Source of the DNA: Legionellales bacterium
GTDB taxonomy: Bacteria; Pseudomonadota; Gammaproteobacteria; JAGOUN01
Assembly (NCBI GenBank): GCA_027486005.1
Contig: JAIXPZ010000078.1
Coordinates: 1,849-65,848 of the forward strand
Direction: 5' to 3'
DNA length: 64,000 bases
A program made the position numbers and the translations under genes. The notes beneath the pieces are model-generated. The model was not told the origin of the DNA. It was given only the letters and a program-made list of their open reading frames with translations, and made no database searches. Below are positions 43,518 through 45,111 of the stretch, piece after piece; the stretch's first letter is position 1, and each line of letters starts with the position of its first letter.

Positions 43518-43607
43518 GCCCGGGTGGCGAAATTGGTAGACGCAAGGGACTTAAAATCCCTCGGGACTTATCCTCCCATGCCGGTTCGACCCCGGCCCCG
43601 GGCACCA
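43518..43607 (+). tRNA. tRNA-Leu (UAA)
   Basis: GCCCGGGTGGCGAAATTGGTAGACGCAAGGGACTTAAAATCCC...GGTTCGACCCCGGCCCCGGGCACCA, with a long variable arm and anticodon loop cuTAAaa. Confidence 0.9.
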
Positions 43608-43644
43608 TTTAATCAGGCTTTCGCCTGGGCAAAAGTAAATTGAC
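43548..43644 (+). repeat. Direct repeat DR1 (97 bp: the 3'-terminal 60 nt of tRNA-Leu plus 37 bp downstream), the att-like left boundary of an islet
   Basis: Repeated at 44890-44986 with 2 mismatches. Confidence 0.85.
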
Positions 43645-43680
43645 TCAAGAAATATAAAAAATTACTCTTTGATACTTATT

Positions 43681-44112
43681 TTAACTGCTTTGAGGTAATT
43701 TAAGTCTGCTATTAACTAAGGCAGATAGCGTTTGAGTCGCAGCAATCAAATCTCGCAGTAGTAGTTCGTCAATTTCCATCCATCCTTCATATTCAGCTAA
43801 ATTTCGGTAATCGTGACATTTAGCTAATACGCGCCATAATTCAGGTCCTGCGCCGACGGTATGTTGTAATGCTTGAAAGACGAGATAACGATTAGCGGAT
43901 CGATAGTCATGGCGGCGCAATGCCGCGAGAGCTAATGCATGTGCGGCATTGTAGGCGAGATCGAAACGGCTTTCGTATGAAAGTGCTATGTTTTTCGAAT
44001 CTTTCAAACGTTTTTGACCAGAGCCAACAAGCCCATCAAATTCTTGTTGATTGAAGGGTTCATTTTTTAATTGCCCGGTTTTTACCAGATTATCTAATGG
44101 CGTTAAGCTCAT
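43681..44112 (-). CDS. HEPN-domain protein (HepT-like putative toxin)
   Basis: 143-aa all-alpha ORF with a C-terminal R-x5-H-x-Y motif (RVLAKCHDY) matching the HepT Rx4-6HxY signature. It overlaps the upstream MNT gene by 23 nt. Confidence 0.65.
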   Translation of the reverse strand: MSLTPLDNLVKTGQLKNEPFNQQEFDGLVGSGQKRLKDSKNIALSYESRFDLAYNAAHALALAALRRHDYRSANRYLVFQALQHTVGAGPELWRVLAKCHDYRNLAEYEGWMEIDELLLRDLIAATQTLSALVNSRLKLPQSS

Positions 44113-44782
44113 TTTCGGTTCCTATCAAAAATATCTTGGGTTGCTTGATTAATTGTGCAATGAAGTTATTGTCCGCATTTTTTTTCCGTGTCCATTCCGT
44201 TGGCCTATAAAAAGTCGGATTTATTTTTCGGCCTAATTGAGTTCCGGTGGGTTCGAGTAATTTAAAAATTTCTGCATAGCTGAGGGACTCGCTAATAATC
44301 ATTAAATCAATATCACTTTGTGCATTATCGGTTTGCTTGGCGATTGAGCCATAAATGAAAGCGCAGGCTATTTTTTCAGTTAAAGGTGCGATGGCTTCTT
44401 TTACAACATCTGCTAAGCCAAATGTTTTTAGAATAATACTGCGTAATTCTGTAAAAAGCGGGTAGGCTTGATTAACTTGGTAACGTTTTTGATTGCCGAC
44501 GGATTTGACTGTTAAGATGCCTGCTTGTGTGAGTTTTGCGAGTTCGCGTTGAACGGCACCGGTTCCCATATTGGTTGTGCGTATAATTTCATTGGTATGA
44601 AAATCTGAATCTGCATGGCTGTAGAGAAGCCCTAGCACATGTTGCTGAACTTTAGAAAAGAGAGCGTTGCTGGCGTGAATGTTTATCGTACTCATAATGG
44701 GTATTATAGTACCCAATACTAACATGATCAAGAGTCCAGTTAATTGTTGTTTATGGTGCACTGATGGTGCAGTTGGCCGCAA
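44090..44782 (-). CDS. Minimal nucleotidyltransferase (MntA-like antitoxin) with an N-terminal winged-helix HTH
   Basis: Nucleotidyltransferase motif GS-x9-SDIDLMII and an N-terminal ArsR/MarR-like wHTH. The likely real start is MSTINIH at 44695; the longer ORF to 44782 is probably an artefact. Confidence 0.65.
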   Translation of the reverse strand: MRPTAPSVHHKQQLTGLLIMLVLGTIIPIMSTINIHASNALFSKVQQHVLGLLYSHADSDFHTNEIIRTTNMGTGAVQRELAKLTQAGILTVKSVGNQKRYQVNQAYPLFTELRSIILKTFGLADVVKEAIAPLTEKIACAFIYGSIAKQTDNAQSDIDLMIISESLSYAEIFKLLEPTGTQLGRKINPTFYRPTEWTRKKNADNNFIAQLIKQPKIFLIGTENELNAIR

Positions 44783-44889
44783 ATAATCATGACAAATAGT
44801 AACTCATTGTAGTAAAGTAATTTTGTTATCTTGTTGATTTCATTGGTTTTTTTTTAGTTATAGGGTGTTGTCAATTATCATTTTATATT

Positions 44890-44986
44890 GACTTAAAATC
44901 CCTCGGTACTTATCCTCCCATGCCGGTTCGACCCCGGCCCCGGGCACCATTTAATCAGGCTTTCGCCTGGGCCAAAGTAAATTGAC
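44890..44986 (+). repeat. Direct repeat DR1' (a second copy of the tRNA-Leu 3' 60 nt plus 37 bp), the att-like right boundary
   Basis: 95/97 identity to 43548-43644. It is followed after 1 nt by a 43-bp copy (44988-45030) of 44085-44127, the hepT-like start region. Confidence 0.85.
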
Positions 44987-45111
44987 CCCAGATTATCTAA
45001 TGGCGTTAAGCTCATTTTCGGTTCCTATCAGTTGCCGAGATTGAGGTCAACGATCCCCCATTGCTAAAAAGAGTCAAAGTTTTGAGGAATCAATCGACTC
45101 CGATCCATTGA

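Follow-up and report, generated by a model that had tools for sequence, protein, structure and literature searches.

A minimal nucleotidyltransferase-HEPN module bracketed by tRNA-Leu-derived direct repeats in a Legionellales bacterium and its possible origin from a tRNA-integrated element

This report concerns a 1.25-kb islet which lies immediately downstream of a tRNA-Leu gene in a 64-kb stretch of DNA (64,000 nucleotides; hereafter the window, in whose coordinates all positions are given unless a contig is named) from a Legionellales bacterium (GenBank assembly GCA_027486005.1, contig JAIXPZ010000078.1). The tRNA-Leu(UAA) gene, whose anticodon is placed at 43552-43554 by ARAGORN, closes a small tRNA cluster, and the 60 nucleotides of its 3' end together with 37 bp of flanking DNA (43548-43644) recur downstream of it, in the same orientation, at 44890-44986, with 95 of 97 bases matching and an exact block of 65 bp among them. 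The two copies are spaced by 1,342 bp. Between them only two genes are encoded, overlapping by 23 nt on the minus strand: the upstream one for a protein with a minimal nucleotidyltransferase (MNT) domain, and the downstream one for a protein of HEPN fold. Beyond the second repeat, an exact 43-bp copy of the junction between the two genes is attached (Table 1). The repeat, the identity of the tRNA gene and its share in the repeat, the overlapping gene pair, the lack of an integrase gene and the 43-bp copy had all been read from the letters in an original prediction, and the repeat finder, alignments, ARAGORN, Rfam and the listing of open reading frames (ORFs) bear them out; the ORFs of 40 or more amino acids between the repeats are the gene pair and short overlapping frames only. 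Nothing stands out in the base composition.

Table 1. Features at and around the islet, in window coordinates (L001, L003, L084 and L111 are related loci compared in the text)
Feature	Position	Strand	Description or basis
tRNA-Gly	43310-43384		ARAGORN, Rfam
tRNA-Cys	43429-43502		ARAGORN, Rfam
tRNA-Leu(UAA)	43518-43607	+	Intact, end gene of Gly-Cys-Leu tRNA cluster; ARAGORN; Rfam tRNA 56.3 bits
Repeat 1 (attL-like)	43548-43650	+	tRNA-Leu 3' end (60 nt) and flank (37 bp)
TCAAGAAATATAAA	43645-43658	+	14 bp common to L084, which has an IS66-like gene beyond; alignment
HEPN-fold protein, 143 amino acids	43681-44112	-	Predicted RNase toxin, PDC-M05B component; ORF, fold, PADLOC
43-bp segment	44085-44127		MNT gene end, ribosome-binding site, first 9 HEPN codons; repeat finder
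MNT protein, 201 amino acids	44090-44695	-	Winged helix-turn-helix and Pol-beta-type minimal nucleotidyltransferase, predicted antitoxin/autoregulator, PDC-M05A component; ATG start; Pfam, PADLOC
Promoter-like TTGATC-17-TATAAT	44703-44731	-	Conserved in L001, L003, L111
Palindrome TGCAC-TGATG-GTGCA inside doubled ATGGTGCA	44757-44771		Upstream of promoter; conserved in L001, deleted in L111
Repeat 2 (attR-like)	44890-44992	+	Displaced tRNA-Leu 3' fragment and flank; repeat finder, alignment
Second 43-bp copy	44988-45030		Exact, fused to repeat 2; repeat finder
Unique 81-bp spacer	45031-45111		Up to ankyrin gene stop codon; holds hairpin AATCAATCGACTCCGATCCATTGATTA
Ankyrin-repeat protein, 930 amino acids	45112-47904	-	Neighbour outside islet; Pfam Ank; presence varies between strains

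With the repeat finder the two long repeats can be followed over 103 nt at 96% identity (43548-43650 versus 44890-44992), the identity past 43644 to 43650 being weak. A three-way alignment places the start of identity at GACTTAAAATCCC, 2 nt 5' of the 7-nt anticodon loop, and its end at ...AAATTGAC, 37 bp beyond the tRNA 3' end; the flank in repeat 1 holds a hairpin, CAGGC-TTTC-GCCTG. The long repeat is found in only two copies in the window, its 33-mer and 37-mer halves each occurring exactly twice, and none of 100 shuffled sequences gave any match to these halves. Two differences separate the copies, a G in repeat 1 against a T in repeat 2 in the variable arm of the tRNA, and an A against a C in the flank. 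The G>T change in repeat 2 would break a stem and is consistent with decay of a non-functional fragment free of selection, and repeat 2 is not called as a tRNA by ARAGORN. The flanking C of repeat 2 is found also in the related locus L084, which suggests that repeat 2, rather than repeat 1, would be the chromosome-derived copy. A 3' tRNA fragment which lies in tRNA orientation and begins at the anticodon loop is a classic signature of tyrosine integrases, and the original prediction had called it an attL/attR-like integration at the tRNA 3' end. The signature does stand, with its crossover site at the anticodon loop; no clean empty site was found.

What kind of module do the repeats enclose? 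The MNT protein scores 34 bits against the Pfam Polbeta model (cutoff 26.9), contains GS-x9-SDIDL literally and has sub-threshold winged-helix/HTH matches within its first 90 residues; its earlier description as a winged helix-turn-helix (wHTH) nucleotidyltransferase is upheld. PADLOC matches it to the PDC-M05A profile PDLC04368 (E 1.9e-81, residues 7-198 on profile positions 5-196 of 201) and matches the HEPN protein, adjacent and on the same strand, to the PDC-M05B profile PDLC04373 (E 4.1e-62, residues 1-135, profile of 141 positions), and by these profile matches the module is a predicted member of the PADLOC candidate defence system PDC-M05. In each of the 21 related loci where the two genes are found together, MNT is the upstream gene and overlaps HEPN. 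The promoter-like sequence stands so close to the MNT gene that its -10 box ends 7 nt ahead of the ATG, and the MNT transcript is therefore probably leaderless. Further upstream, the wHTH domain has a candidate operator in the palindrome at 44757-44771 (TGCACTGATGGTGCA).

The HEPN protein has no match among Pfam or NCBIfam models. Its AlphaFold model, with 52 homologues in the alignment, is confident (pLDDT 92.8), and the structures nearest to it are those of the HEPN-T group (2HSB, 1WOL, 1UFB, 1WWP). When a profile of 54 diverse homologues was compared with the PDB, 2HSB (AF_0298) was the sole significant match (E 0.0016), and in this match R103-N-L-A-E-Y108 is aligned with R-E-E-S-D-Y of AF_0298. 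The family to which the protein belongs has at least 7,962 matches, many of them about 70% identical and all annotated as hypothetical, and 1,410 cluster representatives at E <=1e-3; it can firmly be regarded as a separate, very large and highly conserved bacterial clade in the HEPN-T branch for which Pfam has no model. Among the 54 homologues, H100 and R103 are each kept in 53, N104 and Y108 each in 52, and R94 in 47. The conserved block thus reads H100-x2-R103-N104-x3-Y108, followed by G110, which is also conserved. The R-x5-H-x-Y motif pointed out in the original prediction is present as R94-x5-H100-x-Y102 and its arginine and histidine are well kept, but Y102 varies (K, R, V, C among others) across the 54 diverse and the 52 close homologues while Y108 is near-invariant. 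R94-x5-H100 exists in the protein and the block aligned to the nearest solved HEPN is R103-N104-x3-Y108; from sequence, R94 and R103 are both candidates for the catalytic arginine. The pair had also been called a type VII HepT/MntA module. An MNT gene followed by an overlapping gene for a HEPN-fold protein is indeed there; the toxin, however, is not of the DUF86 type, since just one of the 54 family members touches PF01934 (DUF86/HepT-like), with an E of 0.13, and the antitoxin reaches 30 bits where the NCBIfam MntA equivalog model has its cutoff at 60. As judged from these matches, the predicted toxin is not a DUF86 HepT, and the module is to be placed in PDC-M05/HEPN-T and not in DUF86 HepT/MntA.

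How, then, can such a module come to lie between two copies of a tRNA 3' half? The explanation toward which we incline, with slightly better than even confidence, is that the islet is a relic of an element put into the anticodon-loop site of tRNA-Leu by a tyrosine integrase, of which an addictive cargo has survived. The incoming element would have supplied a new tRNA 3' half together with 37 bp of flank, now repeat 1, and its insertion would have displaced the old 3' half, now repeat 2. Later the integrase would have gone, along with every other part of the cargo, and the toxin-antitoxin pair would have stayed as the sole content because it resists deletion, its loss releasing the toxin. No more than 30-40 bp separate the ends of the trimmed cargo from the limits of homology of the module, and an addictive module would be the part of an island that outlasts its erosion. 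As to the working of the module, gene architecture and protein folds are established; beyond them, MNT would bind the palindrome upstream of its promoter through the wHTH domain and repress the operon, and its nucleotidyltransferase domain would neutralise the HEPN RNase, probably by NMPylating Y108 and/or by complexing HEPN. Once MNT runs short, for instance because a phage infects or the locus is lost, HEPN may cleave RNA and cause growth arrest.

It had been proposed originally to compare the locus across strains, and such a comparison reveals that it varies between near-conspecific genomes, though with no clean empty site among them. The closest relatives of the window are metagenome-assembled genomes (MAGs) and metagenome contigs, and the near-conspecific contigs among them were reached via homologues of UvrC. 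An exact-match look-up of HEPN, MNT, UvrC and KdsB of the window in a contig index found none of them, and in a search of genome contigs with PgsA the best among the matches listed reached just 56% identity and thus supplied no closed genome of a relative. One near-conspecific contig, L084 (GCA_018061255.1; UvrC 99.0% identical), follows the window at 98% nucleotide identity up to 43658. Past its tRNA-Leu it has a split IS66-like transposase gene (418 and 119 amino acids, with a weak DDE_Tnp_IS66 match only) and unrelated DNA (L084 12885-14580), the gene starting 14 bp after the tRNA-Leu flank at a point corresponding to window 43658/43659. A JGI contig (sample 3300059473, 32.5 kb; UvrC 97.7%), known from its gene list only, has in order the tRNAs, a 47-amino-acid ORF which is a HEPN remnant, a 201-amino-acid Polbeta gene corresponding to MNT, and kdsB 122 bp further on: HEPN is mostly deleted there, the ankyrin gene is absent and no room is left for repeat 2. 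The genes downstream of His_Phos_1 in this contig also differ from those of the window. Two contigs from ENA, L111 and L112, keep the module at 93-97% nucleotide identity with a left flank unlike the tRNA flank of the window, and in L111 the module adjoins a diverged ankyrin gene. Their HEPN genes (L111 10001-10276; L112 187-462) stop at codon 92, before H100, R103 and Y108, and their MNT genes are intact. L111 is without the segment corresponding to window 44757-45115, that is, the candidate operator, repeat 2, the second 43-bp copy and the spacer, and its MNT upstream DNA is joined to the 3' end of the diverged ankyrin gene. As read from the alignment, this state is a secondary deletion, because the lost segment includes module-upstream DNA (the operator region) which the window shares with the more distant locus L001. 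All in all, this uncultured Legionellales-like gammaproteobacterium has a hotspot of integration, variable from strain to strain, between tRNA-Leu(UAA) and kdsB.

The toxin half of the module is not so faithfully kept as the antitoxin half. The JGI contig and the loci L094, L102, L103 and L104 have HEPN in truncated form or not at all, and, to judge from these sequences and from L111 and L112, the predicted toxin is selectively lost or inactivated in sister lineages. As for the module as a whole, L001 and L002 hold it at 89% identity (window 43710-44851) in an unrelated context without a tRNA gene, and in 3 of 24 metagenome loci a tRNA gene lies within about 400 bp of it, without tRNA-fragment repeats; the unrelated context, together with the tRNA proximity of some loci, suggests that the module may be mobile cargo. 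It was also considered whether the homology with L001 runs on through 11 bp at the start of repeat 2, and this was rejected, the alignment fading near 44871.

It is to be noted that the two sides of the islet differ in their divergence: UvrC (40775-42595) on the left is 97-99% identical and KdsB (48073-48888) on the right 91-94% identical in every pair of related contigs. Since this is so in all strain pairs, the idea that the right flank of the window is uniquely foreign was dropped, and the islet is therefore judged to border a region which is prone to recombination in general. Frequent recombination, suggested by the same figures, also makes one think of an origin of the repeats without any integrase. 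DNA of a related strain carrying the tRNA-Leu 3' half, its flank and the module, circular or linear, might have entered by transformation and been joined to the chromosome through one homologous crossover of Campbell type or else through homology-facilitated illegitimate recombination; each of these routes would duplicate about 100 bp of target. A further locus, L003, fits this idea: a related MNT-HEPN module (82% nucleotide identity) is tightly bracketed there by 122-bp direct repeats (L003 702-823 and 1898-2019; 84% identical, spacing 1196 bp) which are not tRNA-derived, and long target duplications are thus not limited to the att site. The failure to find an integrase in the islet or among 10 candidate ORFs of the window agrees with it as well. 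We nevertheless regard this origin as unlikely, though by no means negligible. The left boundary of the repeat falls within 2 nt of the anticodon loop, where a random illegitimate junction is only a few percent likely; orientation and position of the fragment are as a tDNA island requires; and 12 other loci with both flanks available have no flanking repeats. The right repeat of L003 carries a perfect palindrome, ACGTGAATCTCACGT, and lies upstream of a DUF6088 (AbiEi-like) gene. Integron attC sites were considered for the L003 repeats and rejected, no R''/R' core sites being evident in their sequence.

The 43-bp copy beyond repeat 2 heads a 40-amino-acid ORF (44893-45015, minus strand) which runs antisense into the tRNA fragment. 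From its exactness a recent local rearrangement had been deduced, and this part of the original prediction is not supported: no other DNA of the module is so well conserved as this segment, which is 100% identical in L111, whose module is only 93% identical, and 95-98% identical in modules which are 82-89% identical overall, so that its perfect identity does not date the event. Presumably, the conservation comes from the two reading frames and the ribosome-binding site which overlap there. A C-AGA microhomology marks the point where the copy meets repeat 2, and we infer that the copy is the scar of a second module copy, either in tandem or of an earlier occupant. The toxin body of this second copy would have been lost by a deletion of about 435 bp at the C-AGA microhomology, and its antitoxin by a further deletion. 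As to the 81-bp spacer which follows, a decayed MNT coding sequence was sought in it and rejected, its translation in the MNT frame having no similarity and its DNA no match. The spacer hairpin AATCAATCGACTCCGATCCATTGATTA (27 nt, 45088-45114) overlaps the ankyrin stop codon and is single-copy in the window, with a near copy at L003 197-224. Likewise, 9-bp AT-only inverted matches at the ends of the islet were rejected as terminal inverted repeats, being compatible with chance in AT-rich DNA.

If a scar of a second copy is accepted, could the islet still be moving? It may be imagined that a 1,342-bp circle is excised and re-inserted at tRNA-Leu by an integrase which another element that uses tRNA-Leu provides in trans, leaving tandem scars, and that the islet is a still-active minimal mobile cassette. 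Both att-like repeats are nearly intact, the cargo is trimmed as closely as described above, the scar suggests repeated insertion at one site, and cis-mobilizable elements (CIMEs) are by definition elements which keep attL/attR with their recombination and transfer genes lost (PMC6323972). Against this, neither an integrase nor a circle junction nor an empty site was observed, and the related strains change by deletions and by insertion of an insertion sequence (IS), not by precise loss of the islet. We give an active cassette a slim chance. If it were true, the cassette bracketed by 122-bp repeats in L003 would be a second instance, and a general way would be at hand by which a very widespread toxin-antitoxin or defence module moves from genome to genome with long target duplications.

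Another caution comes from the material itself. The window is probably derived from a metagenome assembly, and linkage across the 65-bp exact core of the repeats rests on this assembly. The islet might then be a chimera of co-existing strain alleles, in which an 'empty' chromosome, with tRNA-Leu, its flank, the 43-bp scar and the ankyrin gene in succession, would have been merged with a separate allele or with a 1,342-bp circle. The closest relatives are of metagenomic origin, at least four alleles of the locus exist among near-identical genomes, and an exact core of such length lets an assembler switch paths. Moreover, the Logan contigs of two members of the HEPN cluster, P0433 and P0434 (HEPN more than 92% identical), measure 1,298 and 1,406 bp, near the repeat spacing, and they could be repeat-bounded unitigs or circles. 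A chimera is improbable all the same. The junction at 44889/44890, between MNT-upstream DNA and the tRNA fragment, must exist in the reads because a de Bruijn path switch cannot create it, and the two copies of the repeat can be told apart to either side of the exact core, so that ordinary reads can phase them.

Besides this dependence on assembly, several observations weigh against the view that the islet is an integrase-made relic. The 14 bp after repeat 1 are common to L084, so a simple model needs a different element in L084 with the same attP arm. The related alleles which keep the module, those of the JGI contig and L111, are without repeat 2 and thus give no independent support for an ancestral repeat 2, and the view that the islet is excised or inserted as one piece gains nothing from them. 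Just two informative differences separate the repeats, and the non-tRNA repeats of L003 keep a recombination origin without integrase alive. No integrase domain was found among the 10 candidate ORFs elsewhere in the window. When viral contigs were searched with the 3' end of the tRNA and with the MNT protein, no match came up, neither an att-bearing element nor a relative of the module; a phage collection gave no match, and a plasmid search just 4 distant ones. A clean empty site, that is, tRNA-Leu directly joined to the sequence after repeat 2 (flank with C, then CCCAGATTATC), was sought and not found, the att 33-mer having no match in JGI metagenomes. On the protein side, the functions of both proteins are inferred from fold, motifs, gene order and the literature on related systems, and a single-sequence AF2 model of MNT was unusable (pLDDT 47.8). 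With these points taken into account, an integrated element eroded to its toxin-antitoxin pair is still the reading toward which we incline.

The surroundings of the islet deserve a few words. The ankyrin gene next to it is absent in the JGI contig and replaced by a diverged version of 1022 amino acids in L111. It contains large internal repeats (for example, about 46930-47445 is like 47347-47838), and its nucleotide identity between lineages is 77-88%, against about 94% for its neighbours. A VipE effector domain (Pfam PF20876, E 2.7e-32) lies at the N-terminus of a 336-amino-acid protein encoded at 25429-26439 (minus strand), and together with the 930-amino-acid ankyrin protein this suggests a Legionellales-like intracellular lifestyle. 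REP-like short palindromic repeats with CACCCCAGCGCAGGCTGGGG occur between genes at 20974-21047, 52513-52543 and 55194-55227 of the window and at 14837-15034 of L084. L111 has an extra AAA_14/DUF4143 ATPase gene (L111 2637-3950) between the His_Phos_1 and PmbA/TldD genes, corresponding to window 49513/49516, and a similar gene is found in the window at 3307-4464. An IS5-type DUF4096 fragment also lies between the ankyrin gene and kdsB in L111.

What can be learned from this locus? Current concepts are left unchanged, for the module type (PDC-M05, MNT-HEPN) was known already, and so was the integration signature. If our reading is right, the locus offers a small and clear example in which a toxin-antitoxin and candidate defence module would be the sole survivor of a decayed tRNA-integrated element, and in which the toxin half has been inactivated in sister lineages. 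The placement of a large family without a Pfam model in HEPN-T also yields residues, H100, R103 and Y108, whose catalytic or modification roles are testable.

Compared with type VII HepT/MntA systems (SO_3166/SO_3165, and the HEPN-MNT pairs of A. flos-aquae and L. pneumophila), the HEPN fold of the toxin is common to both, but the tyrosine of the RX4HXY motif which accepts AMPylation, corresponding to Y102 here, is not conserved in the present family, and the antitoxin has an extra N-terminal wHTH domain besides scoring below the MntA cutoff. Closer is the HEPN-T or UPF0332 group (AF_0298, 2HSB; ST0689, 1WOL; TT1696, 1UFB; TTHA0636, 1WWP), the classical MNT-associated HEPN proteins of Pfam PF05168, to which both the best structural matches and the sole significant profile match of the present protein belong. 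Anantharaman et al. described a HEPN-T class in which an acidic residue replaces the canonical histidine and a conserved histidine lies elsewhere (PMC3710099), and the present family likewise has an acidic residue in that place and its conserved histidine at H100. A conserved C-terminal tyrosine of the associated HEPN proteins was in their prediction the residue which MNTs nucleotidylate (PMC3710099). In sequence the distance is large: the protein is only 16-17% identical to 2HSB, it has no match to PF05168 at E <=0.1, and PF05168 is absent among the 15 families matched by the 54 homologues at E <=1.

As for the setting, the regenerated tDNA and the displaced 3' fragment which mark the ends of an island are the basis of island mapping in Islander, and an anticodon-centred attP was found in 2083 of 3919 mapped islands, more than half (PMC4383910). 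The islet has an intact tDNA with a cognate 3' fragment downstream in the same orientation, and the boundary of the fragment is at a known crossover sublocation, the anticodon loop; a tyrosine integrase inside the island, which Islander also asks for, is missing, as just the two module genes lie between the repeats. With tRNA-gene islands and CIMEs it shares the regenerated tRNA gene with a 3' fragment in direct orientation, the crossover at the anticodon loop and contents which alternate between strains. It is far smaller at 1.25 kb, it has neither integrase nor transfer genes, and it bears an extra 43-bp module fragment past the distal repeat. In keeping att-like repeats at 95/97 without an integrase, it agrees with the definition of a CIME and may be called CIME-like; mobilisation by the integrase of another element is a candidate property, no circle junction, empty site or cognate integrase having been found in the searches. 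The nearest known system of all is PDC-M05, a toxin-antitoxin-like pair of a nucleotidyltransferase with a protein bearing a HEPN domain (PMC12988326), one other representative of which protected E. coli from at least one phage (bioRxiv 10.1101/2024.09.26.614923). The present module has the same two-gene order and matches it nearly end to end in both proteins with no difference at the protein level, and it is the setting bracketed by tRNA-Leu-derived repeats that is specific to the window locus.

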